A DNA stretch of 64,000 nt from a virus. The stretch is taken from the IMG/VR virus record IMGVR_UViG_3300027896_000024, positions 1-64,000 of that record. One strand, 5' to 3'. This document shows, one piece after another, positions 20,740 through 32,686 of this stretch (the stretch's first letter is position 1; each line of letters begins with the position of its first letter). The position numbers were made by a program, and so were the translations under genes. The notes below the pieces were generated by a model. It ran no database searches, had not been told where the DNA came from, and saw only the letters and a program-made list of their open reading frames with translations.

Positions 20740-20768
20740 TTGACAAGTATCTATATTTATTCCATAAT
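20740..20768 (+). promoter_or_regulatory. Sigma70-type early promoter
   Basis: TTGACA-17 nt-CATAAT. Confidence 0.8.
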
Positions 20769-20774
20769 ATAGGC

Positions 20775-21418
20775 GAGGTTAAGGATATGAGAACGAGAAC
20801 AAGCAAAAGGGAAACAAACCAAAGGCCAGAGGGGACAAGAAACCCGTCCTCGACCGGCGCGGCTTTCCCGGAGGTGGGGTTCTCGTCGAGCTTGAGCAGC
20901 CATCGCACCCTAGTTTTCTAGGCGCAGGTGGCACGGCGATCGATGATCCTAATTCGGGCTTTTGAGACTCCAAGCCGGGGCGACACGGTGAACCCGGAAG
21001 GAACAAATCGGAGAAAGCGGCTAGGTCGGCCTTAAGACTTTCACCTAAAGAAATCAGGCGAGTAGGGGAAAAGAGAGACGGGGAGACCCGGAGCATCGCG
21101 AAATCCTTTTCCAGCAAAAAGCCGGGTGAATAAAGGATCCGAGCAAAGCGAATCTGAGAGACGGCCAAATGACCCAGTGAGGGGAGGTCGTAAACCAGAT
21201 GAGTCGAGCGGAGTTCCTGGAAGGGGTAACGTCCCTAATTAGAGCGTGGGTACCTGAAAAATTCTTTCCCGTTTTGGTGGTCCGGTGGAAGGGATAAAAT
21301 CTAAGGTTAGCTAATTAGCAAAAGCGATAGACTCCGACCGCAAGTGCAGAGTTCCCGGCTATGCGGACGCCAAGCGAAAGCTCGGTAGGTTTTCTCTCAA
21401 ATCTCCTGTCGAGTTTTA
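20775..21418 (+). ncRNA. Candidate large structured ncRNA (about 650 nt)
   Basis: No convincing ORF over 650 nt in an otherwise dense genome; many hairpins; long-range pairings; bounded by the promoter and ribozyme 1. Confidence 0.5.
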
Positions 21419-21479
21419 GCAGAGGGCAATCAGGTTGTGAGACCTGGTTGTAATGCACGGTTAGGTCCCAAGTCCTAAC
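21419..21479 (+). ncRNA. Twister ribozyme copy 1 (permuted; predicted cut 21451/21452)
   Basis: GCA GAGGG CAATCAGGT-loop-ACCTGGTTG TAA TGC AC; P4 GTTAGG TCCCAAGT CCTAAC. Confidence 0.85.
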
Positions 21480-21498
21480 ATCAAAAGGAGAGAACAAC

Positions 21499-21672
21499 AT
21501 GAAAAACAAAACATGGCCAAACGAAAAAGACGTTTGCTATGATTGCGGAAGCAACATTCCAGGACATCATACTCCGTCATGCGATTTTGCGGAACCTGAT
21601 GACAAGCGCGATTTACCTGAGCAGCCTGGTACTCAATGGTGGACACGTGAAGTACCTGCGGAGTTGAAATAG
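21499..21672 (+). CDS. 57-aa Cys/His protein (absent from the ORF track)
   Basis: AAGGAGAG RBS; MKNKTWPNEKDVCYDCGSNIPGHHTPSC...; TAG overlaps ribozyme 2. Confidence 0.7.
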   Translation: MKNKTWPNEKDVCYDCGSNIPGHHTPSCDFAEPDDKRDLPEQPGTQWWTREVPAELK

Positions 21673-21736
21673 CAGAGGGCCGGCGTAAGCCGGTAATGCA
21701 CTTGCCGGGGGCACCGGCAATCGGTCCCAAGTCCGA
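21672..21736 (+). ncRNA. Twister ribozyme copy 2, with P3 (cut 21694/21695)
   Basis: P1 CCGGC-GTAA-GCCGG; P3 TTGCCGG/CCGGCAA; P4 TCGG TCCCAAGT CCGA. Confidence 0.85.
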
Positions 21737-21782
21737 ACAAGCACAGGGAACAAAACAACACAAAAAGAAAGAGAGAAATCAA

Positions 21783-22157
21783 ATGACGACTTCGAAAAAT
21801 ACGACCACTGCAACCGCAACTGCAACCGCTCCTGAAACCACGGCCCCGGCAGCAGCTCCAAAGGCTCCGACCCAGGCCAAACCGGTCGCCACCAAGAAAG
21901 CGGCCGTCAAGAAGGTCTTTATCTTCGTCGCGGTGGAACCGGACCTGTACCGGCTCACAATCGGATCGAACGCGGACTCGTCCAAGATTCGTAAGCTGCG
22001 TAATCACAACGCCAAGGAGATCAAGCAGGCTGTTGAGAACGCTTCGAACTTCGCGGGCCGGCCGCCCAAGCCGATCACGTTGAAGAAAGCGGATCTGAGC
22101 AAGTTCGGTCCCAAGGCCGCGCCGTTCACGGGTTTGAAGGCTTTCCGGATTGCGTAG
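21783..22157 (+). CDS. Basic Ala/Thr/Lys-rich protein
   Basis: MTTSKNTTTATATATAP...; A-rich leader after ribozyme 2. Confidence 0.65.
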   Translation: MTTSKNTTTATATATAPETTAPAAAPKAPTQAKPVATKKAAVKKVFIFVAVEPDLYRLTIGSNADSSKIRKLRNHNAKEIKQAVENASNFAGRPPKPITLKKADLSKFGPKAAPFTGLKAFRIA

Positions 22158-22162
22158 TTCCT

Positions 22163-22219
22163 GCAGAGGGGGTCGGCTTCGGCCGACCTAATGCACATGC
22201 TGGGTCCCAAGTCCCAGCA
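22163..22219 (+). ncRNA. Twister ribozyme copy 3 (cut 22189/22190)
   Basis: P1 GGTCGGC-TTCG-GCCGACC; P4 TGCTGGG TCCCAAGT CCCAGCA. Confidence 0.87.
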
Positions 22220-22239
22220 CTTCAAAAAGGAGAGACAAC

Positions 22240-22380
22240 ATGAAGAAGTTCTTTATTTGGTTATTTCTGATGTGGGCCGTACTTCACTTCGGAGCCAAGT
22301 GGGGCAAGGAAAACCAGGCGAAGGTGGAACAGCAGATTCACGAGTCAGGAATATTCCAGGTTGCGAATATCAACAAATAG
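22240..22380 (+). CDS. 46-aa membrane/secreted peptide (absent from the ORF track)
   Basis: AAGGAGAG RBS; MKKFFIWLFLMWAVLHFGAKWGKE...; TAG overlaps ribozyme 4. Confidence 0.7.
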   Translation: MKKFFIWLFLMWAVLHFGAKWGKENQAKVEQQIHESGIFQVANINK

Positions 22381-22437
22381 CAGAGGGCCAGGGTTCACGT
22401 CCCTGGTAATGCGGTAGGTCGGTCCCAAGCCCCGACC
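22380..22437 (+). ncRNA. Twister ribozyme copy 4 (cut 22407/22408)
   Basis: P1 CCAGGG/CCCTGG; P4 GGTCGG TCCCAAGCC CCGACC; T2 GGU/GCC. Confidence 0.82.
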
Positions 22438-22518
22438 ACAACGAATCATTCATTCCACAACACAACAAAACGGCCCAGGGCAAGGTAGGGCTGGAAAACC
22501 ACAAAAGGAGAGACAACA

Positions 22519-22983
22519 ATGACCGAGATCAAAACAAACAAAGGCACGTTTGAACTACCGGCCGGTGTTACCTTATCGGATTTAAAATATCCGTCTTGGA
22601 AAAGTTCCAAGCGGTTTGATTATTCCGAGGTTACCAAGCTGGGCCTGGATCATTCGGATTTGGAGTTAGATTTCTGGTACGTAAATTCAATTGGCTGGTG
22701 CCTTCCGACTTTACTTATTCACAGGGCCGGACGGAGATCAGCACCGGGAACAACGGACAGAACGTATGCGGTTGGTGTAAACGGAAATCATTACCGCATC
22801 GGCCATGGACCACACGTTCAGGCTGAGGTTAAGGTGTACGTCAACAAGGCAAATTTGGATCGCCTTCGAAAGTACATCGACCTTCGGAAGTCGGGTGCGG
22901 TACACGCCAACGAAACCCGGGATCGCATTTCAACACGGCGTATGAACACTATGAATCGTCGGAGCAGCTTATTTGGATTTTAG
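22519..22983 (+). CDS. Hypothetical early protein
   Basis: AAGGAGAG RBS; 154 aa; between ribozymes 4 and 5. Confidence 0.75.
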   Translation: MTEIKTNKGTFELPAGVTLSDLKYPSWKSSKRFDYSEVTKLGLDHSDLELDFWYVNSIGWCLPTLLIHRAGRRSAPGTTDRTYAVGVNGNHYRIGHGPHVQAEVKVYVNKANLDRLRKYIDLRKSGAVHANETRDRISTRRMNTMNRRSSLFGF

Positions 22984-23048
22984 CAGAGGGGGGCCGAAAG
23001 GCCCTAATGCCCACCGGATATAGGATCCGGTCAGGTCCCAAGGCCTGA
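22983..23048 (+). ncRNA. Twister ribozyme copy 5, with P3 (cut 23005/23006)
   Basis: P1 GGGCC-GAAA-GGCCC; P3 ACCGGAT/ATCCGGT; P4 loop TCCCAAGG with compensatory T2 CC/GG. Confidence 0.87.
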
Positions 23049-23086
23049 GGGTATTACCAAAAAAGAGAGATTAAGGAGACAATACA

Positions 23087-23806
23087 ATGAGCAAAAAGCA
23101 GAATAACGGCACTGATGATGAATCATTGGTATTCGCTGGCAAGGAGCTCACGTTGGAAGATGAGATGAACATTCTCAAGGGCGGGACAGTAGGCCTGGAA
23201 CAGTTCCTCGAAAACTTCCAGTTTCTGATTTTCGTCCTGGACGAGTCGGGTTCGATGCAAGACCGGCTGCCGAGTGGAGATACTCCGAAGCGTGAGGTTC
23301 AGAAGCGGATTATCAAACGGTATGTGGACGAGAAGATCGGACGCAAGGCCGGCACGATGAAGATCGGTGTTGTCAGCTTCGATGATGAAGCGTCCGTTTG
23401 GCTCCAGGGTTCGTCGGATCCGGTTGCAATCAAGGCCGCGGCGGACCAGTGCAGGGGCGGTGGCGGTACGCACCTCGGGCGCGGAATTCTCAAGGGTCTT
23501 TCATTACTCCACCGGATGAAAGATTATATTCCCCGTCTCGTTCTTACGTCGGATGGTGAGGCACATGATCCGGCTCAGGCAATCGCCGGAGCGGAAGCGG
23601 CCAAGGCCAAGGGCGTCGTAATCGACACGGTGTACATTGGCCCTGGTGGGGGCGGTGACGTATATGCGGATAATGCGGCTGATCTTATGCGGAGAATCGC
23701 TGAGATCACCGGCGGCGTGTTCGAGCGCGTAAACAATCAGTCGGAATTCGAAACCAAGTTTTTCGATGTGATCAAGCGCCCGTTGCTTGCAACCAGTTTG
23801 AAGTAG
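23087..23806 (+). CDS. von Willebrand factor A (VWA) domain protein
   Basis: MIDAS DESGSM, GGGT, LTSDGE, IAEITGG. Confidence 0.88.
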   Translation: MSKKQNNGTDDESLVFAGKELTLEDEMNILKGGTVGLEQFLENFQFLIFVLDESGSMQDRLPSGDTPKREVQKRIIKRYVDEKIGRKAGTMKIGVVSFDDEASVWLQGSSDPVAIKAAADQCRGGGGTHLGRGILKGLSLLHRMKDYIPRLVLTSDGEAHDPAQAIAGAEAAKAKGVVIDTVYIGPGGGGDVYADNAADLMRRIAEITGGVFERVNNQSEFETKFFDVIKRPLLATSLK

Positions 23807-23811
23807 TCCTC

Positions 23812-23864
23812 GCAGAGGGGGGCCGGTAACGGCCCTAATGCACGGGCCGGTCCCAAGTCCGGTC
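23812..23864 (+). ncRNA. Twister ribozyme copy 6 (cut 23836/23837)
   Basis: P1 GGGCCG-GTAA-CGGCCC; P4 GGCCGG TCCCAAGT CCGGTC. Confidence 0.87.
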
Positions 23865-23897
23865 GTCATTACAAACCACAAAAAGGAGAGAACGATC

Positions 23898-24599
23898 ATG
23901 GTATATGCTGATGATTTTCCAGAGCAACAAAAACAACAGGAAGCGCGGAAAGCGGCTATTAGGGCTCACAGGGCCGAGATGGACGCTAAGATCGAACAGT
24001 GCACGTTGGCCTTAGTCGTCGCGTTGGAAAACTATGGCCACAAGGTAGAACGGCATGGGCACAAGCAGGACGACAAAGTGATCCTCGGCGACATCTATCA
24101 TATTGACGGGGTGTACTTTTGGGATCTGCAGTTCTACGAACAAGGGCTTTACGCTCCTGGTGGATATCTCAGGGGTGCCGGAAATGGTAAACTGGCATTG
24201 CATTATCAGGATCCGAATTCAGTGCTTCAAAGGCGCGTTATCATTCGTGAGAAGAAAAGCGGTTTTGATTACAACACAATCGCCGCTACGTTGATAGCCT
24301 TGGCAGCCCCGTTAATACCGGCTGCTAAGGAACGGTTGGAGCGGGAAGCGAAGCAGGCCGAGGCCAACGCCAAAGCGGAACAGATCCGGGACATGGCGAG
24401 CGCTTTACAGCAACAGTTTCGGAGCAAAACGTTGACGAACTTGAGTATTCAATATCAGAACTGGTGCGGCAAATTTGAGGTTTCGTTCAATACGGAGACC
24501 TTGGAAGAGGCGCAAGCAATTCTGAGCCGGTTGGTTCCGAATAAAACGGAATCGCCCGACGACGCAATCGAAGAAGCGAGGCGTAGAATACACGGTTAG
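23898..24599 (+). CDS. Hypothetical early protein
   Basis: AAGGAGAG RBS before ATG 23898. Confidence 0.7.
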   Translation: MVYADDFPEQQKQQEARKAAIRAHRAEMDAKIEQCTLALVVALENYGHKVERHGHKQDDKVILGDIYHIDGVYFWDLQFYEQGLYAPGGYLRGAGNGKLALHYQDPNSVLQRRVIIREKKSGFDYNTIAATLIALAAPLIPAAKERLEREAKQAEANAKAEQIRDMASALQQQFRSKTLTNLSIQYQNWCGKFEVSFNTETLEEAQAILSRLVPNKTESPDDAIEEARRRIHG

Positions 24600-24673
24600 C
24601 AGAGGGGGGCGAGCTAACACAGTCGCCCTAATGCACTAGTACATTCTTTAAGTACTAATGGTCCCAAGTCCAT
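24599..24673 (+). ncRNA. Twister ribozyme copy 7, with P3 (cut 24629/24630)
   Basis: P1 GGGCGA/TCGCCC; P3 TAGTAC/GTACTA; P4 ATGG TCCCAAGT CCAT. Confidence 0.83.
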
Positions 24674-24701
24674 AAACAAAAAAGAGAGAAGAGGAGATAA
24701 C

Positions 24702-25466
24702 ATGAACCCAAGGAAGCTGTTGGCACAGCTCAGGCGGGTGTATTCACAGTTTACCAAAATGGCTAAGCAGCCGATCGAGGACAGGAACAAGTTGCTCGTA
24801 TCTGCGGTGGCCATAATGGATGCTGTAGTGCGCCTGGCAATTGTTCAATACAAATCGCAACTGCCTCAGAACGCGGCCAAGCTTTTCGATATCGCGGGAA
24901 AGTGCAGAGCTAGGGCGATGAGTACAACATTCAACGAAGAGAAGGATTTATCACTTCGGATAGCACTTCTGAAAATGGAACAAATGATTCCCATGTTAAG
25001 CCCGCCGGCGTTTCAGCTCTATATTGACAAGTTCAATCTTAGGGCGTCGGCACATAAAGAGGGCAAGTCGGCCAAAGGTCCCAAAGCACCACGGGCACCA
25101 AGAACACCGGCGAGCGCCCAGCCTCAAAATCAGTATGGTGTACGGCGGAAGTTTTCTCCGGTGCCTCAAATAGTACCGGTTGGTTCGCCGCTGATTATCA
25201 ACATTCTATTTGCTAATCTAAAGACCCCGTTCAGGGCGTCTTCGGCAAAGGCAAAGGCATTTCGTTTCTGGTTCGAGGACTTCCGTACTAAGGAAGAGGT
25301 CGCTCAATACCTGAACCAGGTTACCAACGGGAAGGGCAAATCGCTAGTCTGGTTACTCTGGAACAAGAGGAACGGCGGCGACGAGTCGATGCACTGGTCG
25401 TTTATTCAAAAGGGCAACAAGAGCAAGCTGGTTGTATGCGATCCGACCAAGCTTCCGAAACCATAG
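24702..25466 (+). CDS. Basic protein with a C-terminal domain shared with 34305-35120
   Basis: TPFRASSAKAKAF...GGDESMHW vs TPFRAGSAKEKAF...GGDKSMSW. Confidence 0.7.
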   Translation: MNPRKLLAQLRRVYSQFTKMAKQPIEDRNKLLVSAVAIMDAVVRLAIVQYKSQLPQNAAKLFDIAGKCRARAMSTTFNEEKDLSLRIALLKMEQMIPMLSPPAFQLYIDKFNLRASAHKEGKSAKGPKAPRAPRTPASAQPQNQYGVRRKFSPVPQIVPVGSPLIINILFANLKTPFRASSAKAKAFRFWFEDFRTKEEVAQYLNQVTNGKGKSLVWLLWNKRNGGDESMHWSFIQKGNKSKLVVCDPTKLPKP

Positions 25467-25529
25467 CAGAGGGGCAGCAGGCCTGAGGAACCTGCTGCTA
25501 ATGCACATTCCGGGTCCCAAGTCCCGGAA
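25466..25529 (+). ncRNA. Twister ribozyme copy 8 (cut 25499/25500)
   Basis: P1 GCAGCAGG/CCTGCTGC; P4 TTCCGGG TCCCAAGT CCCGGAA. Confidence 0.87.
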
Positions 25530-25549
25530 CACAAAAAGGAGAGAGCAAC

Positions 25550-25768
25550 ATGGCAGAGATTTTGAAGTGCGAGAAATGCGGCCAAAAGAATAGGGTCGAT
25601 ATATCGCGTTTAGCTCAGTCTATGTGTGCTAAGTGCGGTTGTCCTTTATTTATTCGGCCAGCACCCGGAAGAGATCTTATTGGAGATCTGGCCAACAAGC
25701 TGGAAGCGGCAGCTAAGAATGAGAGGTTCCGTAGAACGCAGGAATACATTTATAGAAGTCGTAACTAA
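25550..25768 (+). CDS. Zinc-ribbon protein resembling the thioredoxin-2 N-terminal finger
   Basis: CEKCGQKNRV...CAKCG. Confidence 0.65.
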   Translation: MAEILKCEKCGQKNRVDISRLAQSMCAKCGCPLFIRPAPGRDLIGDLANKLEAAAKNERFRRTQEYIYRSRN

Positions 25769-25821
25769 GCAGAGGGGGGCCGAAAGGCCCTAATGCACGG
25801 CTTCGGTCCCAAGTCCGAAGC
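25769..25821 (+). ncRNA. Twister ribozyme copy 9 (cut 25791/25792)
   Basis: P1 GGGCC-GAAA-GGCCC; P4 GCTTCGG TCCCAAGT CCGAAGC. Confidence 0.87.
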
Positions 25822-25844
25822 GTCATTACAAAAAGGGAGACAAC

Positions 25845-26318
25845 ATGGAACCAAGACAGTTCGAGGCACAATGCTACAAAACACTGGAAGAGTACGATCG
25901 TACTTATTTCGGCAGCGTAGGCAGCGTGATCGGGATTCGCCTTACTCGGTTTGCTAGAGATTACGAAGCACTCCAGCAGTTCGAGGCAATAACGCGAAAA
26001 CGATTCGGGTTGGTTATGGTGACGCTGGGTATGTACGATTCGGAGTCTCGCCTGGTGTATCTTAATTACCACGTCAGGCACCTGGTAAATAAAGGCTACT
26101 TTACCACGGAGTTGCGGGCGGTCTTATACCATGAGTTGATTCATGCGGTCTTGTGCAATGCGCATCAGCCTATCAGGTTAGGGCTGTACCGCTGTTATTC
26201 ACAAGGCGGCCACGGACCTGCTTTTCAAAAGCTCTGGAACAGTAATAATGAGCTTCGAGAGGTAAACGTGCAGCCGTTATGTTCCGCGGTTTGGGACAGA
26301 ATGGAGAAGCGGCTATGA
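25845..26318 (+). CDS. SprT-like zinc metalloprotease
   Basis: VLYHELIHA and GHGPAF motifs. Confidence 0.8.
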   Translation: MEPRQFEAQCYKTLEEYDRTYFGSVGSVIGIRLTRFARDYEALQQFEAITRKRFGLVMVTLGMYDSESRLVYLNYHVRHLVNKGYFTTELRAVLYHELIHAVLCNAHQPIRLGLYRCYSQGGHGPAFQKLWNSNNELREVNVQPLCSAVWDRMEKRL

Positions 26319-26896
26319 ACATCCAGGCGTTTTTCGATCAGCTTAAACTCGAACTCTCATTACTTAAACACACGGTGGATGATGAGTTCGAGATGTTTGA
26401 TAATAGGCCGCTTCGGTTAACGGTCGCAGGTTCCTTGGGATCAGATTCCCAGGCAATCGCATTCGGTTTCTACGGAGATCGAAAAGTGCTTCGGGGTGCT
26501 ATGAGCCCCGAGGCTATTGCTTCCGCGATCCATATGTATCTGCAAACCAGGAACGTAGGTACCGGGGCAAAACCACAACCGAACAGAGACATTCTCAATA
26601 CCAAACGGCCGTACGATCAGTACAAACAGTCACAGCAACAAAGACCTCATACAAAACCGATCAAGCCTCAGGAACCTAAACGTCGAGTTTGGGCAATGGG
26701 GCCGTCACAGTTTCAGGGTACACCGCTAGACCAGTTAAGGTTGGCGGACTTCGATGGTAAGGTTCAAACAGTCACAGTCAAGGGTGAGATCAAGACGGCA
26801 TCAGACCTGGTGTTGGCGGACTTGCCCGAAAAACAACAGCTTATGCTCAAGATACTTGAGCGGGCACTCAATAGGTTGAACAAACAGTTATCCTAA
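26315..26896 (+). CDS. Hypothetical protein
   Basis: ATGA overlap with the SprT-like gene. Confidence 0.65.
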   Translation: MNIQAFFDQLKLELSLLKHTVDDEFEMFDNRPLRLTVAGSLGSDSQAIAFGFYGDRKVLRGAMSPEAIASAIHMYLQTRNVGTGAKPQPNRDILNTKRPYDQYKQSQQQRPHTKPIKPQEPKRRVWAMGPSQFQGTPLDQLRLADFDGKVQTVTVKGEIKTASDLVLADLPEKQQLMLKILERALNRLNKQLS

Positions 26897-26911
26897 AAAG
26901 GAGAGAACAAC

Positions 26912-27313
26912 ATGGCTAAGCGAGTTTTGACTTGCGGTAATGAGGATTGCAAGCAAAAGAATAACGTCGATATGGACCGCCTGAAGGCGGCCTACTGCGG
27001 GAAGTGCTCGTTTCCGATGTACATGGCCGTCGAACTCCAAGTTCGTGAGGACGAGGAGGAGGAATCGGTCGATGATCTGATTGACGAAATGGCCGGTGCG
27101 GAAGAGGACGATGAACCGGAAGAGGACGAGGAAGATGATTCGGAAGAGGAAGCCGAGGAAATCTTTCTCTGCCCGCTTTGTGGACAGACTGAGGTACCTG
27201 AGGAAGGGCGGGCCTGCTCCAAGTGCCTAGCCGCTCAGAAAAAAGCGGCCAAGGGCAAGGCAGGGGCGAAAAAACCCGCATCCAAGGGCAAGACCAAACC
27301 GAAAGTAAACTAG
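26912..27313 (+). CDS. Zinc-ribbon protein with acidic linker and basic tail
   Basis: N-terminal finger similar to 25550-25768; second CxxC...CxxC. Confidence 0.7.
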   Translation: MAKRVLTCGNEDCKQKNNVDMDRLKAAYCGKCSFPMYMAVELQVREDEEEESVDDLIDEMAGAEEDDEPEEDEEDDSEEEAEEIFLCPLCGQTEVPEEGRACSKCLAAQKKAAKGKAGAKKPASKGKTKPKVN

Positions 27314-27373
27314 CAGAGGGGACCGGGCCAGCACGGCCGGTCTAATGCGCAGTCCCGGTCCCAAGTCCGGGGC
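27313..27373 (+). ncRNA. Twister ribozyme copy 10 (cut 27343/27344)
   Basis: P1 GACCGG/CCGGTC; P4 GTCCCGG TCCCAAGT CCGGGGC; T2 GC/GU. Confidence 0.85.
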
Positions 27374-27420
27374 GCATTGTTAGTACTAACATTCATTCTC
27401 ACAAAAGGGAGAAAACGAAC

Positions 27421-27609
27421 ATGGCAATCAGTGCTGAAATCAAGGGCAAGAATTTGGTAGTGACGATTCCGGTTAACGATCCGCCTGAGCCTTCCGGTTC
27501 CGGCAAGTCGTTGGTGGTTGCGTCTTCGCACGGCAATCAGGAGACGACCTGCAAGGTGAACGGGAAGAACCTGGTGATCGGCCTGAACGCTTACATCCGC
27601 AACAAGTAG
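27421..27609 (+). CDS. Conserved small protein (SGSGKSLVVASSHGN family)
   Basis: 62 aa; S.SGKS.VVAS..GN...LN.Y pattern. Confidence 0.7.
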   Translation: MAISAEIKGKNLVVTIPVNDPPEPSGSGKSLVVASSHGNQETTCKVNGKNLVIGLNAYIRNK

Positions 27610-27668
27610 GCAGAGGGGGGCGGGCTAGTATAGCCGCCCTAATGCACAAGCCGGTCCCAAGTTCGGCT
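27610..27668 (+). ncRNA. Twister ribozyme copy 11 (cut 27640/27641)
   Basis: P1 GGGCGG..CTA/TAGCCGCCC; P4 AGCCGG TCCCAAGT TCGGCT. Confidence 0.85.
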
Positions 27669-27688
27669 ATTCAAAAAGGAGAGAACCT

Positions 27689-27955
27689 ATGGTACACGTT
27701 CCAAGGCAGTTGACTACGGAAGAGGCTATCATCGAGGCGTACGAGCTTACCTGGGATCAAATAGCCCCAGATATTCTAGGTCGCGATGAGACCGCCAGCG
27801 TCGATCGGGACACCGTCATGGATTGCTGCGCGGATCACGTTCGTATTCACGGCGCTATGTCCAAGGAAGTAGAGGCAGCGTACAAGCTGCTATCCTGGGA
27901 AGAAAAGAAGCGGTTGCTCAGGAAGGCGTTCCCGCACAAGACGTACGGATACTAG
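27689..27955 (+). CDS. Hypothetical early protein
   Basis: AAGGAGAG RBS. Confidence 0.7.
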   Translation: MVHVPRQLTTEEAIIEAYELTWDQIAPDILGRDETASVDRDTVMDCCADHVRIHGAMSKEVEAAYKLLSWEEKKRLLRKAFPHKTYGY

Positions 27956-27965
27956 GGAGGTTTAT

Positions 27966-28166
27966 ATGGCAGAGATCTCCAGATGGGCAAACACTCAAGC
28001 TACCGCAGAGGTTGCTTGTCCCCGTTGTGGTATGCAGGCCGGTGTTGAGTGCAGAACTCCAAAGATGCGTAGGTTATTCACAATTCACACCGAACGAGGG
28101 AATGCCTATTTTGCCAAGATAGGTCGTGACGAATGGCTTCGTAGGTACTCAATATCAAAACACTAG
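27966..28166 (+). CDS. Phage zinc-finger protein
   Basis: CPRCGMQAGVEC...HTER. Confidence 0.7.
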   Translation: MAEISRWANTQATAEVACPRCGMQAGVECRTPKMRRLFTIHTERGNAYFAKIGRDEWLRRYSISKH

Positions 28167-28220
28167 CAGAGGGCGGCCGGCAACGGCCGTAATGCACAGC
28201 TCGGGTCCCAAGTCCTGAGT
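28166..28220 (+). ncRNA. Twister ribozyme copy 12 (cut 28190/28191)
   Basis: P1 CGGCCG-GCAA-CGGCCG; P4 GCTCGGG TCCCAAGT CCTGAGT. Confidence 0.87.
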
Positions 28221-28240
28221 ATAAAAAAGGAGAGAACAAC

Positions 28241-28684
28241 ATGGATACAATCATCGAAGATAAACATTCGTTGGCACATCTTGAACAGGTCGTGCGTAAA
28301 TTGTTCGAGAGGTTGGATGTTTCCGAACTTCGTCGTGGTCCGCATCCGATACCAACAGGGATAGGCGAAATCAAGATTGACGATGAAACGCTGGACGTAT
28401 TCGGCGGCCTGTGGGCGGTTGCGTGCGAGATCACAGTAACCCGAAAGTATTTGGGTGGCCGGGGCCGCAAAGCAAAAGTTCCTGGATTTGTGGTCGGCGT
28501 CGTAGTACATCATCATAATTATCCGCATGAACCGGATGATTACGAACCTGTTGAAACGGGCCAGTTCGAGTCACCTTACAAAGCCGCAGAGGCTCTGGCA
28601 TTGTTGTATTACCAAGACCGTATCAATAGTGCGATGGAGGACATCAGCATGGCAGAGGTTGCGGAGCAGTTCCACGAAGATTAG
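28241..28684 (+). CDS. Hypothetical early protein
   Basis: AAGGAGAG RBS, 147 aa. Confidence 0.7.
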   Translation: MDTIIEDKHSLAHLEQVVRKLFERLDVSELRRGPHPIPTGIGEIKIDDETLDVFGGLWAVACEITVTRKYLGGRGRKAKVPGFVVGVVVHHHNYPHEPDDYEPVETGQFESPYKAAEALALLYYQDRINSAMEDISMAEVAEQFHED

Positions 28685-28734
28685 CAGAGGGGGGCCGCAA
28701 GGCCCTAATGCACGAGCTGGTCCCAAGTCCAGCT
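28684..28734 (+). ncRNA. Twister ribozyme copy 13 (cut 28706/28707)
   Basis: P1 GGGCC-GCAA-GGCCC; P4 AGCTGG TCCCAAGT CCAGCT. Confidence 0.87.
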
Positions 28735-28763
28735 AGGCAGATCACAAAAAGGAGAGAACAACG

Positions 28764-29300
28764 ATGGCTGATAAAGAGGTAGAGGCGACATATACCGAGG
28801 AGCCGTCTAAGTATCCTGTATTCGTGCAGGAGCTTATGGATCGCTTCAAGGCCGTTGAGCGCAAGCTAACGGAAAACAAGTATCAAATGGACGCAGAGTT
28901 AAAGCGTACCCAGGAGCGCCTGGAGGCCAGTTATACCAAGCAGCGGGATTTGGACGGGCAGAAGTTAATCGTTCATTTCCTGGAAGTGTTGGATAATCTG
29001 GATTGGGCATTATCACATGCTACTGAATCGGCCGACAGCTTTCATTCGGGTGTACGTCTAGTGGCGGATCTGTTTCGGAAGAAACTCCAGCAACTAGGCG
29101 TAGTACTCGTACCGTTGAAGGACAAGCCTTACGATCCGGAATTCGCGCAAGCTATCTTTGCACAAGAGGTAGATAAGCCCGAGTTACACGGCATCGTGCT
29201 TCAAGAACACGTCACTTGCTACGCGATTGATGCGACTATCATCCGTCCTGGTCAAGTGGTCGTAGGCAAGAAGCGGGAGGTGTCTAATGGTAGCGGTTAA
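28764..29300 (+). CDS. grpE: GrpE-like nucleotide exchange factor
   Basis: N-terminal coiled coil, LEVLDNLDWAL, GVRLV, YDPEFAQAI, Y...IIRPGQVVV. Confidence 0.8.
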   Translation: MADKEVEATYTEEPSKYPVFVQELMDRFKAVERKLTENKYQMDAELKRTQERLEASYTKQRDLDGQKLIVHFLEVLDNLDWALSHATESADSFHSGVRLVADLFRKKLQQLGVVLVPLKDKPYDPEFAQAIFAQEVDKPELHGIVLQEHVTCYAIDATIIRPGQVVVGKKREVSNGSG

Positions 29301-29538
29301 GTGCTGTAAGTGTTTTCGGAATACCAACAAGTTCCGGTGTTGTTCCTGCGGTCACAGTATTTGTACTTCATGTAAAGAGCAGACTCGAAAATTACCGGTT
29401 CGCAAGTTGGTGAGTGACGAGGACTTGTTATTCCTGTTGGAAGTATTTGAACGGTCTGGCCAGTCATTATCCTATCGGGCCAAGGTGTACCGAGTAGAGG
29501 CTATGCATCGCGGTCTTATCAAGAAGGAGGCCAAGTGA
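29287..29538 (+). CDS. Cys-rich zinc-finger protein
   Basis: CCKC...CCSCGHSICTSC. Confidence 0.6.
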   Translation: MVAVKCCKCFRNTNKFRCCSCGHSICTSCKEQTRKLPVRKLVSDEDLLFLLEVFERSGQSLSYRAKVYRVEAMHRGLIKKEAK

Positions 29539-29738
29539 AAAGGAAGAGGTTGATGGTCGTTGTACAACCGGTAACAAATCTCCCGGGCTTGTATACCTGG
29601 TCAATACAACGGGCTGGCCGGGTGATTGCGATATACCCGGAGACGTACAAAACAAAGGACTCGGCTATTCGTTATGCTGAGCCCTTTGCTCAGGAAATCG
29701 GAGCAACATTCGCTACCGAAAAGGAGGTACAGGGTTAG
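29535..29738 (+). CDS. Small protein, YegP/DUF1508-like pattern
   Basis: YTWSI...GRVIA..PETYKTKDSAIR. Confidence 0.5.
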   Translation: MKRKRLMVVVQPVTNLPGLYTWSIQRAGRVIAIYPETYKTKDSAIRYAEPFAQEIGATFATEKEVQG

Positions 29739-29796
29739 CAGAGGGGACCGGTCTGAGGGCCGGTCTAATGCGCATGGTCGGTCCCAAGTCCGACCA
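29738..29796 (+). ncRNA. Twister ribozyme copy 14 (cut 29766/29767)
   Basis: P1 GACCGGTC-TGAG-GGCCGGTC; P4 TGGTCGG TCCCAAGT CCGACCA. Confidence 0.87.
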
Positions 29797-29808
29797 AGGG
29801 AGGCACCT

Positions 29809-30477
29809 ATGAGGCGTATTTCTCGTGAGGGGTGGCGCCGGCGTAAGATCGCTGAGTACTACCAACGGCGGGACGATGAACGAATACAAAAAAGGGAGGA
29901 CAACATGATTACACCAGAATATGTTGAATGGGAAAAGGCTCAGGAGCGGGCAGCTTTTGAGTCTAAGATGCGCAGGGACGAGGCTTTGGAAAAGCAGTCC
30001 CAAGTGCAGCAGAGGAAGACAATGGCGGATACGAGCAATCAGGATTCAGCCGTGCCGGCACAGCTCAAGGACTTGATGTTGATATTCGCTGGTAATGCAT
30101 ATTTCACAATTCGAAACAACACAACAGGCAATCGCTTCACGTTTCGCGTATCGGTTTCAAAACCGAATCCACAATTTCCGAACCCGGTTCACTTCGTTAG
30201 TGTACTCTGCGGGCCGGATAACCGTACGAACTATGCGTATATCGGGTTCGTCAGCAAAGCACTTCAATATCGGCACGCAGTCAAGTCAATCATCACGGAA
30301 CAAGCGGTATCTGTTCAAGCTTTCAAATGGTTACTGGCTAGGGTAGCTACTAAGCAGCCCTTGCCTCCCGAAGTGCAGATCTGGCACGAGGGTCGGTGTT
30401 GCCGATGTGGCCGAATGCTAACAGTTCCTGAGTCCATTGAGCACGGCCTAGGGCCGGAATGCTACGGGAGGATATGA
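29809..30477 (+). CDS. DUF6011-like protein (alternative start 29905)
   Basis: C-terminal GRCCRCGRMLTVPESIEHGLGPEC. Confidence 0.75.
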   Translation: MRRISREGWRRRKIAEYYQRRDDERIQKREDNMITPEYVEWEKAQERAAFESKMRRDEALEKQSQVQQRKTMADTSNQDSAVPAQLKDLMLIFAGNAYFTIRNNTTGNRFTFRVSVSKPNPQFPNPVHFVSVLCGPDNRTNYAYIGFVSKALQYRHAVKSIITEQAVSVQAFKWLLARVATKQPLPPEVQIWHEGRCCRCGRMLTVPESIEHGLGPECYGRI

Positions 30478-30707
30478 TGCGAGTTACTCAGATGGAACGC
30501 GCTGCGATTCTCCAGATGTTTGTACTCCCGGATGGTGTATCGTATCTCGGGGAGCAACCGGATCCGGCTGGCGGGTCGATATCACTTTATCACGATGTAG
30601 TCACAGGGTCGTCATTCATGGTTCACGAAGGCGAAAACATCGAGCAGGCGGTAAACAGAATCCGAGAATCATTTTTCCCGGAGGAATTCAAGGTTTGGGA
30701 AGCATAG
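30474..30707 (+). CDS. Hypothetical protein
   Basis: GGAGG RBS; ATGA overlap; TAG overlaps ribozyme 15. Confidence 0.6.
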   Translation: MMRVTQMERAAILQMFVLPDGVSYLGEQPDPAGGSISLYHDVVTGSSFMVHEGENIEQAVNRIRESFFPEEFKVWEA

Positions 30708-30803
30708 CAGAGGGGGTGGTTGCCTTTACAAAAGTAGGCATTAAATGGTAGGGCCTGATCCTATCAGCCACCTAATGCGGCAGTCCTGGTCCCAAGTCCC
30801 AGG
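30707..30803 (+). ncRNA. Twister ribozyme copy 15, with branched P1 extension (cut 30773/30774)
   Basis: P1 GGTGGT/GCCACC enclosing two hairpins; P4 CCTGG TCCCAAGTC CCAGG; T2 GGC/GUC. Confidence 0.8.
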
Positions 30804-30828: not shown

Positions 30829-30879
30829 GGCGGGCAACGGGTCTGGTGCGTTGCCAGATCCGACCCGCCCTTTTATTTT
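30829..30879 (+). terminator. Intrinsic terminator closing the ribozyme-punctuated unit
   Basis: GGCGGG..CGGGTCTGG/CCAGATCCG..CCCGCC stem then TTTTATTTT. Confidence 0.8.
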
Positions 30880-31099: not shown

Positions 31100-32686
31100 A
31101 TGGTGTTAGCTTATGCTCCTGGGCTTAGTGTGTACATAGTGTTCTGTACGATCAAGGAAAAGAGTATTCCTGCTCGTGCGGGATTTGTATACAACAAGCT
31201 AGTTCGTAGGCGGTGGGCTACTAAAGATCCGAATGTGGCAAATATCCTTTGGAAGTATGCTGTGCCTGCTTGTAAGGTTCAAATAGGCAAGGATCTTGTT
31301 GCGTCAAAAGTAATCCAGAAAAAATCAAAGGCAGTTAGTTCTGTTACGGAATATCCCTGTCCAGAAGGTATTGATTATCTCCCGTTTCAAAAGGCCGGAA
31401 TAGACTTCATGCTGGAGCGAGATAGTGTATTCTGTGCGGATGATATGGGTGTGGGCAAGACGATAGAGGCATTGGGTGTACTCAATACGGATACGTCGTT
31501 AATATCTATTTTGGTAGTGACAAAGGCAGTACTCAAGATAAACTGGTTAAGGGAGATACAAAAGTGGCGGGCTCGTAAAATGTCGGTGGGTATTGTCTGG
31601 CCAAATCATACGGAATTACCGAAGACAAATATCGTCGTAATTAACTATGACTTGTTAGATAGATTTCACTTGTCCGGATTACGTAATAGAAAATGGGACT
31701 GTATCATCCTGGACGAAGGGCACTATCTAAAGAACCCGAAAAAGAAACGCACTCGTGCTGTATTTGGATATAATGACAGGAAGCGTCACTTCGTTTGTCT
31801 ACCGTTAGAAGCTAGGCGTAAAATGGTGTTAACTGGAACGCCTATGGAGAACCGGCCAAAAGAATTATTTTCATTGCTTCATTGGTTAGATCCCATAGCT
31901 TGGCCCAGCTGGTTTAGATATGCGCAAAGATACTGCGATCCCAAGTTCAATGGCTTCGGAACCACGTATAAAGGGGCGTCAAATGTAGCGGAATTGAGGG
32001 CACGCCTTCGGGGTACACTTATGATACGGCGGGAGTTTACCGAGGTGTTTCCTGAGCTGCCGCCGGTTAGATACCAGATAATCGAAATACCCGTACAGAG
32101 TTCTACAATAAAAAAGCTTGTAACCCGTGAGCTGTATGATTACAATCAATTTTTACAAAAGGGAGTTTCGCGCAAGGTTGCTTTTGCAGAGATGTCGGCG
32201 TTAAGGCACCAGTTAGCCGTCTATAAGCGACCGTTAATCCAGTCATATCTCGAAGGCCTTCGTGAGGAGTCCCCAAGTAGAAAACTGATAGTGTTCGGGC
32301 ATCATCACGATGTACTTGATGGCCTGCATTTATCATTTCCTGATTCAGTTTTAGTCAGGGGTGGACAAGATGCTACCGATCGTCAGAGATCAGTAGACAA
32401 GTTTCAAAACGATATACGGTGCAACATGTTTCTTGGGTCGATTGCAGCTGCGGGGGAGGGCTTGAATTTGTACGCATCCAGTTTAGTTATATTCGGGGAA
32501 TTCGATTGGCGTCCTGGTAAGATACTTCAAGCTATCGGGCGCGCTTTGAGACTGGGACAAAAGGATCGCGTTCTGATTCAATATCTCGTACTGGCAGGTT
32601 CACTTGATTTCAAGCTCATTACAACGTTCGTGAACAAGCACATAGTAAATAAGGAGATTCTCGGTGACAAAAGGGAGATCATTTGA
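31100..32686 (+). CDS. SNF2-family (HARP/SMARCAL1-like) helicase
   Basis: ADDMGVGKT, ILDEGH, LTGTP, GEGLNL, QAIGRALRLGQ. Confidence 0.9.
   Translation: MVLAYAPGLSVYIVFCTIKEKSIPARAGFVYNKLVRRRWATKDPNVANILWKYAVPACKVQIGKDLVASKVIQKKSKAVSSVTEYPCPEGIDYLPFQKAGIDFMLERDSVFCADDMGVGKTIEALGVLNTDTSLISILVVTKAVLKINWLREIQKWRARKMSVGIVWPNHTELPKTNIVVINYDLLDRFHLSGLRNRKWDCIILDEGHYLKNPKKKRTRAVFGYNDRKRHFVCLPLEARRKMVLTGTPMENRPKELFSLLHWLDPIAWPSWFRYAQRYCDPKFNGFGTTYKGASNVAELRARLRGTLMIRREFTEVFPELPPVRYQIIEIPVQSSTIKKLVTRELYDYNQFLQKGVSRKVAFAEMSALRHQLAVYKRPLIQSYLEGLREESPSRKLIVFGHHHDVLDGLHLSFPDSVLVRGGQDATDRQRSVDKFQNDIRCNMFLGSIAAAGEGLNLYASSLVIFGEFDWRPGKILQAIGRALRLGQKDRVLIQYLVLAGSLDFKLITTFVNKHIVNKEILGDKREII

Follow-up and report, generated by a model that had tools for sequence, protein, structure and literature searches.

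Here we analyze an array of small genes and predicted type-P5 twister ribozymes in an uncultured phage, in which the stop codons of most ribozyme-followed genes abut or overlap the 5' ends of the ribozymes. The window, that is, the whole stretch of DNA analyzed, is the first 64 kb of the 82,928-bp viral record IMGVR_UViG_3300027896_000024 from a freshwater metagenome (completeness 100% according to CheckV). The array consists of 15 ribozymes, spanning positions 21418-30802, and 20 small genes, all on the + strand. The tight placement of stop codons and ribozymes in this array is not due to chance, and the same placement recurs in unrelated phages, where the general rule is a zero gap or an overlap between the stop codon and the ribozyme. 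The fusion is probably best understood as a maximally compact cassette, whereby a single transcript would be punctuated by ribozymes, with the 5' half of each ribozyme serving as the whole 3'-untranslated region (3'-UTR).

A search against Rfam yielded 15 Twister-P5 (RF02684) matches, all full-length (model positions 1-58) and on the + strand, and no match to this family in the rest of the 82,928-bp genome, outside 21418-30802. The gathering threshold of RF02684 (37.6 bits) was passed by 12 of the 15 copies, with scores of 43.5-56.2 bits; copies 5, 7 and 15 (37.1, 37.5 and 36.7 bits) remained 0.1-0.9 bits below it because they contain inserted hairpins or an enlarged P1. The conserved core, comprising GCAGAGGG, UAAUGC and GGUCCCAAG, forms invariant columns in an alignment of 11 copies, and the core pattern is matched by all 15. 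The P1 sequence is different in every copy, yet each folds as a hairpin (-11.5 to -22.5 kcal/mol), and the P4 stems differ among the copies but remain complementary. The P1 and P4 stems are thus maintained by compensatory change; P1 is closed by a loop, and the termini are at the P5 position (P5 permutation). P2 is GCA/UGC in all copies; its first paired base is the G at model position 2 (hereafter, P2 G), the partner of the C in UAAUGC. No copy departs from GGG and CCC as the T1 partners, which hence provide no covariation signal. The variable P1 was poorly aligned by MAFFT; the Rfam matches and the core pattern were used instead of a covariance model of our own. By these sequence features, the 15 copies are identified as type-P5 twister ribozymes, with predicted self-cleavage at U^A. 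By eye only, no consistent complementarity that would form a P5 stem was seen between the last codons of the open reading frames (ORFs) and the 3' flank.

In the rebuilt gene models, a Shine-Dalgarno (SD)-like site suitably spaced from the start codon is present for each array gene, in most cases immediately 3' of the preceding ribozyme. An earlier note, made from the sequence of this window alone, had claimed that the G of the upstream TAG stop is the first G of P2 in copies 2, 4, 5, 7, 8, 10, 12, 13, 14 and 15, that the stop abuts P2 in copies 9 and 11, and that 5 nt separate the stop from P2 in copies 3 and 6. With the SD-supported models, all these placements proved exact, as follows.

Copy 1, 21417-21477, + strand: TAGCAGAGGG is present, in the leader, and its TAG closes no credible gene (the upstream frame stays open over 35 codons, without an ATG in the protein read, which does not cover GTG or TTG starts); predicted cut after U21451.
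Copy 2, 21670-21736, + strand: TAG 21670-21672 of gene 21499-21672 (57 aa) shares its G with P2; an additional hairpin lies between P2 and P4; predicted cut after U21694, 22 nt beyond the stop.
Copy 3, 22155-22216, + strand: TAG 22155-22157 of gene 21783-22157 (124 aa), then TTCCT and P2 G 22163; predicted cut after U22189.
Copy 4, 22378-22435, + strand: TAG 22378-22380 of gene 22240-22380 (46 aa) shares its G with P2; predicted cut after U22407.
Copy 5, 22981-23047, + strand: TAG 22981-22983 of gene 22519-22983 (154 aa) shares its G with P2; an additional hairpin is present; predicted cut after U23005.
Copy 6, 23804-23862, + strand: TAG 23804-23806 of the VWA-domain gene 23087-23806 (239 aa), then TCCTC and P2 G 23812; predicted cut after U23836.
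Copy 7, 24597-24673, + strand: TAG 24597-24599 of gene 23898-24599 (233 aa) shares its G with P2; an additional hairpin is present; predicted cut after U24629.
Copy 8, 25464-25526, + strand: TAG 25464-25466 of gene 24702-25466 (254 aa) shares its G with P2; predicted cut after U25499.
Copy 9, 25766-25818, + strand: TAA 25766-25768 of gene 25550-25768 (72 aa) abuts P2 G 25769, its last A being model position 1; predicted cut after U25791.
Copy 10, 27311-27370, + strand: TAG 27311-27313 of gene 26912-27313 (133 aa) shares its G with P2; predicted cut after U27343.
Copy 11, 27607-27666, + strand: TAG 27607-27609 of gene 27421-27609 (62 aa) abuts P2 G 27610, the stop G being model position 1; predicted cut after U27640.
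Copy 12, 28164-28217, + strand: TAG 28164-28166 of gene 27966-28166 (66 aa, Cys-rich; chosen over a TTG ORF in another frame because GGGAGG lies 7 nt before its ATG) shares its G with P2; predicted cut after U28190.
Copy 13, 28682-28732, + strand: TAG 28682-28684 of gene 28241-28684 (147 aa) shares its G with P2; predicted cut after U28706.
Copy 14, 29736-29793, + strand: TAG 29736-29738 of gene 29535-29738 (67 aa; its GTG start overlaps the previous TGA in a GTGA at 29535-29538) shares its G with P2; predicted cut after U29766.
Copy 15, 30705-30802, + strand: TAG 30705-30707 of gene 30459-30707 (82 aa) shares its G with P2; the enlarged P1 forms a branched stem of 60 nt; predicted cut after U30773, 66 nt beyond the stop.

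In copies 3 and 6, the stop is separated from the P2 G by five CU-rich bases (UUCCU at 22158-22162 and UCCUC at 23807-23811, respectively) that resemble an anti-Shine-Dalgarno sequence. By pairing with the AGGAG located just 3' of the ribozyme in question, these bases could generate a short P5-like closing stem, and the next ribosome-binding site (RBS) would be masked until cleavage.

The association between stop codons and ribozymes in this genome exceeds chance expectation. The sequence TAGCAGAGGG has 12 exact occurrences in the window, all at ribozyme 5' ends. TA precedes GCAGAGGG in 12 of the 15 copies; given the TA frequency of 0.053 in the window, the probability of at least 12 such cases is 1.9e-13. 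TAG is the stop codon of 13 of the 14 genes followed by a ribozyme, versus 1 of the 6 other array genes (Fisher p = 0.002) and versus 27 of 98 genes (~28%) in the rest of the genome, as identified by crude gene calling (p = 4e-6). Together with the finding of the same offsets in unrelated copies (see below), these statistics strongly support the proposal of the earlier note that the ribozymes are placed precisely relative to the genes rather than at random.

The note further suggested checking the spacing in related phages. No close relatives of the array were found: there was no megablast match among cultured phages, and two array proteins had no relatives in viral contigs. The 254-aa array protein has one homolog, 56% identical, on a 957-bp contig, and a metagenome scan with the alignment of these two sequences detected none. 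The check was therefore run on unrelated twister-P5 copies, which were collected from viral contigs using the core pattern without any constraint on the upstream bases. This resulted in 122 unique contexts, and in 105 of these, an ORF of 40 or more codons lies upstream. The offset was defined as the position of the first base of the stop codon relative to the P2 G, so that -2 denotes the shared G, and at -4, the stop exactly abuts model position 1. The counts in this viral sample were:

Offset -2: 23 of 105 copies, all with TAG, from ~20 contigs of ~20 metagenomes.
Offset -3: 6 of 105 copies.
Offset -4: 18 of 105 copies.
Offset -5: 8 of 105 copies.

Thus, the tight spacing recurs outside this phage: offsets -2 to -5 account for 52% of the 105 viral copies, compared to 3.2% at random positions in the same loci, and offset -2 alone for 22%, compared to 0.7%. 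A second control, with random GCAG sites, was contaminated by other twisters of the same loci, and the random-position control alone was relied on. In ~63% of the other viral copies, the stop is located within 12 nt of the P2 G. When arrays were defined by Rfam matches in other viral records (11 loci including G001-G005, with up to 11 copies per record; 56 unique copies, 51 with an upstream ORF), offsets -2, -3, -4 and -5 were represented by 13 or 14 (depending on whether the nearest or the longest ORF was taken), 3, 12 and 7 copies, respectively. Contigs of bacterial metagenome-assembled genomes (MAGs) from many phyla gave 6, 4, 11 and 2 copies (n = 34). Across the other phages (n = 83), the median gap is 0 nt between the stop and model position 1 and 22 nt on the 3' side.

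In other phages, TAG is enriched only in the shared-G class; other ribozyme-adjacent stops are TAG in 8 of 43 cases, against a background of 21%. The TA before the ribozyme is linked to ORF ends in the other viral copies and is mostly absent where no ORF precedes. Other phages have C, T or A at model position 1. Pairing of this position with its Rfam partner was seen in none of the 23 cases in which it is the A of TAG, compared to 45 of 67 cases with a stop outside the range -2 to -5 or without a called upstream ORF. Because position 1 varies and never pairs when it is the A of TAG, the TA has no structural role in the RNA.

Twister-P5 arrays with the same stop-adjacent placement are also found in distant bacterial phyla, namely, a Vicinamibacterales chromosome (L146, OY762226.1; 7 copies), a Eubacteriales MAG (L126; 5 copies) and a Methyloceanibacter MAG (L142; 3 copies), each within 8 kb; these arrays presumably belong to prophages.

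Two variations on the theme were detected. On the reverse strand of IMGVR_UViG_3300037524_001274 (L119), at locus offsets 2073, 2458, 5377 and 6130, there are four twisters with the compensated P2 variant GGU/ACC and the core GGUGAGGG, and in one of these copies, the internal TGA of the core closes a 149-codon ORF, which is an independent way of building a stop codon into the ribozyme. The architecture of a twister-P5 subfamily of large phages (L004, L010, L021, L036, L056, L060, L061, L076, L078-L080 and others, on 78-150 kb contigs of metagenome 3300045988) is unlike the stop-fused one: a conserved AAGTATTC is located directly upstream of the ribozyme, P1 is 72-86 nt long, and the stop of the nearest ORF is 14-69 nt away.

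The compact cassette that we consider probable would work as follows. One transcript starting at ~20.77 kb would carry ~20 small early genes located upstream of a helicase gene, and each cassette would consist of a stop codon, the ribozyme, an A-rich spacer of ~20-35 nt with AGGAG, and the start codon of the next gene. The first indispensable base of the ribozyme is the G of the P2 strand GCA, with position 1 before it being free. Consequently, an ORF can extend as far as the ribozyme, sharing the G if it ends in TAG, and because deeper overlap is impossible with GCA, offset -2 is a hard wall of compaction. In the P5 permutation, the predicted cut (U^AAUGC) falls after the closed P1 hairpin, so that the upstream mRNA would keep its stop codon plus 22-33 nt (66 nt in copy 15). 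This retained part would comprise 6-7 single-stranded nucleotides and a GC-rich hairpin with a blunt end; when folded alone, these 5' products show 7 unpaired nucleotides followed by the hairpin, with energies of -11.5 to -22.5 kcal/mol. The upstream product would end in a 2',3'-cyclic phosphate, with termination remaining normal and the new 3' end being structured. A tail of 22-33 nt would fill the mRNA channel of the ribosome, such that non-stop rescue would not be triggered, and a terminal hairpin is expected to be poorly handled by 3' exonucleases. Accepting that the ribozymes cleave in vivo, we infer that the 3' end of each excised mRNA is protected in this manner.

The dimensions of the junctions in the window are in line with close packing. 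The 5' gap, from the stop to model position 1, ranges from a 2-nt overlap to 4 nt, and the 3' gap, mostly 21-35 nt, is the RBS leader (the A-rich spacer with AGGAG). Moreover, the array junctions that lack a ribozyme are equally tight, with gene overlaps of 4-40 nt; the TAA at 26894-26896 runs into the next RBS, and the TAG at 27953-27955 of gene 27689-27955 shares its G with the GGGAGG SD sequence of the next gene (start at 27966), resulting in TAGGGAGG at 27953-27960 with no ribozyme involved. Because the array is maximally tight also at these ribozyme-free junctions, packing would be a simpler cause of the stop-ribozyme fusion. Before seven array genes (21476-29907), a leader of 19-26 nt (AAAAGGAGAGAACAACATG) is nearly identical, so that the RBS part of the cassette is as stereotyped as the ribozyme core.

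Several observations weigh against compaction as the full explanation. The shared G accounts for 29 of the 68 tight junctions (43%; offsets -2 to -4) in other viruses and MAGs, whereas the TAG background is 21% (p = 6e-5), and in this phage, it is found in 10 of 12 tight junctions, so the class is over-represented. Offset -2 is more common than -3 (29 versus 10; p = 0.003), a dip that is not expected from compaction alone. Copies within an array are non-independent, which makes both of these p-values optimistic and weakens the excess figures. Furthermore, selection to save 1-2 nt is very weak, copy 1 retains TA without a gene in front of it, and no orthologous junctions for comparison were found among cultured phages, viral contigs or metagenomes.

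The same geometry raises the question of whether translation controls the RNA. With the stop codon in the A site (+4 to +6), mRNA is single-stranded to about +11 and protected by the ribosome to about +16. Applied to the junction coordinates, with UAG in the A site, this geometry places GCA at +6 to +8, GAGGG at +9 to +13, and P1 from about +13. The inference in the earlier note that a terminating ribosome would cover P2 and GAGGG is, accordingly, geometrically sound, resting as it does on established ribosome geometry. A ribosome at the stop would hold the 5' strand of P2 and at least part of GAGGG single-stranded, and folding and termination would alternate: the active fold needs P2 and T1 and is therefore incompatible with a ribosome that terminates at the stop; P1, in contrast, can remain folded where the mRNA enters the channel.

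Under such ribosome gating, the stop would be placed at P2 in order that melting of P2 and T1 postpones cleavage until the upstream ORF has been read; in a variant of this scenario, the ribosome would eject the downstream fragment or open the clasp between the two ribozyme halves left on the excised mRNA. We regard gating as unlikely, even though the P2 strand and GAGGG lie within the region held by the ribosome, the stop is within reach of the terminating ribosome in the ~63% of the other viral copies mentioned above, and the shared-G class is more common than the TAG background predicts. After cleavage, the two halves would be joined only by the P2 pairs and T1, both invariant across the copies, so that a terminating ribosome could part them and strip off the downstream fragment. 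Set against this, the stop is occupied only briefly and cleavage is irreversible, so any effect on the timing of cleavage would probably be small, a short delay at most. Plain compaction predicts the same offsets, and the ribozyme-free junctions of the array are just as tight. In the large-phage subfamily, with stops 14-69 nt upstream, proximity is evidently not needed for this ribozyme class, and outside this phage, offsets -4 and -5 are about as frequent as -2. The stronger version of the idea, that the stop in P2 is a selected coupling device by which the terminating ribosome times twister cleavage and then separates the halves, appears quite improbable to us. If it were true, the ribosome would set the release of each early mRNA, or determine whether the halves on an excised mRNA re-clasp and religate it into a circle, and the translation of early phage messages would be mechanically coupled to their self-processing.

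A further possibility is that the TA belongs to a portable unit (TAG, ribozyme and RBS leader) that spreads by duplication or recombination, with the stop being inherited and perhaps capping whatever ORF the unit lands behind. Copy 1, which carries TAGCAGAGGG with no gene in front, would be accounted for by this scenario, as would the RBS leader, which after many copies forms a repeat family of its own (7 copies, 73-88% identity), the prevalence of the -2 class in this phage (10 of 14, versus ~22-25% in others), and the presence of TAG also in copies 3, 6 and 11, which do not share the G. However, the P1 and P4 stems of the 15 copies have fully diverged by compensatory change, and an unselected TA would have decayed over the same time. 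In locus L117, copies with near-identical P4 differ at the junction (TAA at -5, TAA at -7, TGA at -5, TAG at -2 and TGA at -4), which shows that junctions evolve independently of the ribozyme, and ribozymes without an upstream ORF mostly lack the TA. We therefore find spread of a preformed unit very unlikely as the source of the pattern.

Given that TAG is read by release factor 1 (RF1) only, it is also conceivable that the early genes end in TAG so that the phage or the host can tune termination, for example, through amber suppression or RF1 changes at a later stage of infection. The TAG stops of 13 of the 14 ribozyme-followed genes, three of them without a shared G, would fit, but the 82.9-kb genome contains no tRNA gene of any kind, its long genes read cleanly under the standard code, and in other phages, the ribozyme-adjacent stops that do not share the G are TAG at the background level (8 of 43 versus 21%). 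After read-through, an in-frame TAA at the cut site would be encountered in 4 of 10 copies, about as expected by chance, and overall, termination control of this kind is highly improbable. Finally, coincidence or an ORF-calling artifact, with a TA that belongs to the ribozyme sequence of this lineage closing any open frame, as the gene-less TA of copy 1 might hint, can be practically dismissed: the upstream ORFs have their own SD and ATG directly after the preceding ribozyme, run for 46-254 codons and end exactly at the TAG, TA in 12 of 15 copies has a probability of ~2e-13, in other phages, position 1 can be C, T or A and is unpaired in all 23 cases when it is A, and random positions yield only 0.7% at offset -2.

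The type-P5 twister class itself was described by Roth et al. in 2014, as reported in PMC5408937 and PMC6765202. The copies analyzed here share with RF02684 the core, the compensated P1 and P4, and the P5 termini; the family description is silent on reading frames, whereas in this array and in many phage copies, the stop abuts or overlaps model positions 1-2, position 1 then being A, with loss of the fourth P2 pair that the Rfam model includes. Clusters of hammerhead ribozymes on one strand have been found to flank single genes or short stretches of genes in prophages and proposed to cut transcripts into gene-length mRNAs, and transcripts of ~2 kb were cut in vitro by such clusters (Perreault et al. 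2011, PMC3088659). The array resembles these clusters in that several same-strand ribozymes flank individual genes of phage origin, but the clusters belong to another ribozyme class and comprise two or three ribozymes each, compared to 15 here, and stop codons are not mentioned in the text of that paper. With 15 ribozymes and 20 genes on the + strand and one strong promoter-like site upstream, the array qualifies as a ribozyme-punctuated phage operon. Processing of polycistronic mRNAs and 3'-UTRs by twister and hammerhead ribozymes has been proposed previously (PMC6765202). In particular, according to the account of Felletti, Bieber and Hartig (2017) given in PMC6765202, a twister placed 3' of a coding region in E. 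coli reporters acts on the mRNA 3' end, and polycistronic transcripts were proposed to be processed into RNAs that differ in stability. As far as that account goes, the position of the twister 3' of a coding region is shared with the present case, which is a natural array as opposed to reporter work.

Other compact arrangements of phage genes offer instructive comparisons. In the early transcript of phage T7, RNase III cuts between the genes to yield mono- and oligocistronic mRNAs, and the upstream product ends in a protective hairpin. T7 requires a host enzyme and a double-stranded RNA site, whereas here, the RNA is predicted to cut itself, leaving a 2',3'-cyclic phosphate and a 5'-OH, and the site starts inside the stop codon. 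In the ATGA and GTGA stop-start overlaps and the stops embedded in SD sequences of compact phages, 1-2 nt are shared as well; in the present case, the sharing partner is a helix of a catalytic RNA rather than a translation signal.

Thus, the ribozyme class is known, and the idea of cutting into gene-length mRNAs dates back to 2011 for hammerheads. The design rule that connects the stop codon to the ribozyme, which is real and general, is apparently undocumented: no paper describing fusion of a stop codon to a ribozyme was found by full-text searching for phage twisters and hammerheads, stop codons and 3'-UTRs, although an earlier mention in Roth et al. 2014 or Felletti et al. 2017 is possible. 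The role of twister ribozymes in bacteria and phages has been described as unresolved (PMC6765202, PMC5408937). More than half of the phage twister-P5 copies start within a nucleotide or two of the upstream stop, and about a fifth share the G of TAG. Starting next to the stop, the ribozyme doubles as the complete 3'-UTR of the upstream gene and as the 5' leader of the gene that follows. The rule further accounts for the fit of the P5 permutation to this setting, as a cut behind the P1 hairpin would keep the stop and leave a structured 3' end. For annotators, it provides a simple check of gene ends in ribozyme arrays; for experimenters, the stop-ribozyme distance is a clean variable; and for synthetic biology, the cassette offers a natural minimal design for an intercistronic insulator.

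The genomic context of the array suggests a single transcription unit. The array genes are nearly all without known families, the exceptions being the VWA domain noted above and one weak SprT-like match. The array is flanked by two features:

20740-20768, + strand: sigma-70-like promoter candidate (TTGACA, 17 nt, CATAAT; 11/12 match), upstream of the leader and the array.
31100-32686: DNA helicase gene (528 aa), directly after the array; tblastn, ~33-37% identity to helicases of Thermus, Caulobacter and Microcystis phages.

A promoter scan inside the array detected no comparably good match, the others being 9/12, the level of shuffled sequence. The site at 20740-20768, which is separated from the array by a gene-free leader, is therefore the likely start of one long transcript through the array. 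Annotation of gene 31100-32686 as a terminase was rejected because tblastn identifies it as a DNA helicase, and because this is the next gene, the array precedes the replication module, which fits an early region. No Rfam ribozymes were found near relatives of the helicase gene (~35% identity), and those loci are uninformative on the array. After the last ribozyme, at 30830-30879, a long GC-rich imperfect hairpin is followed by CTTTTATTTT, which looks like the intrinsic terminator of the operon, although it was not among the matches of a simple terminator scan.

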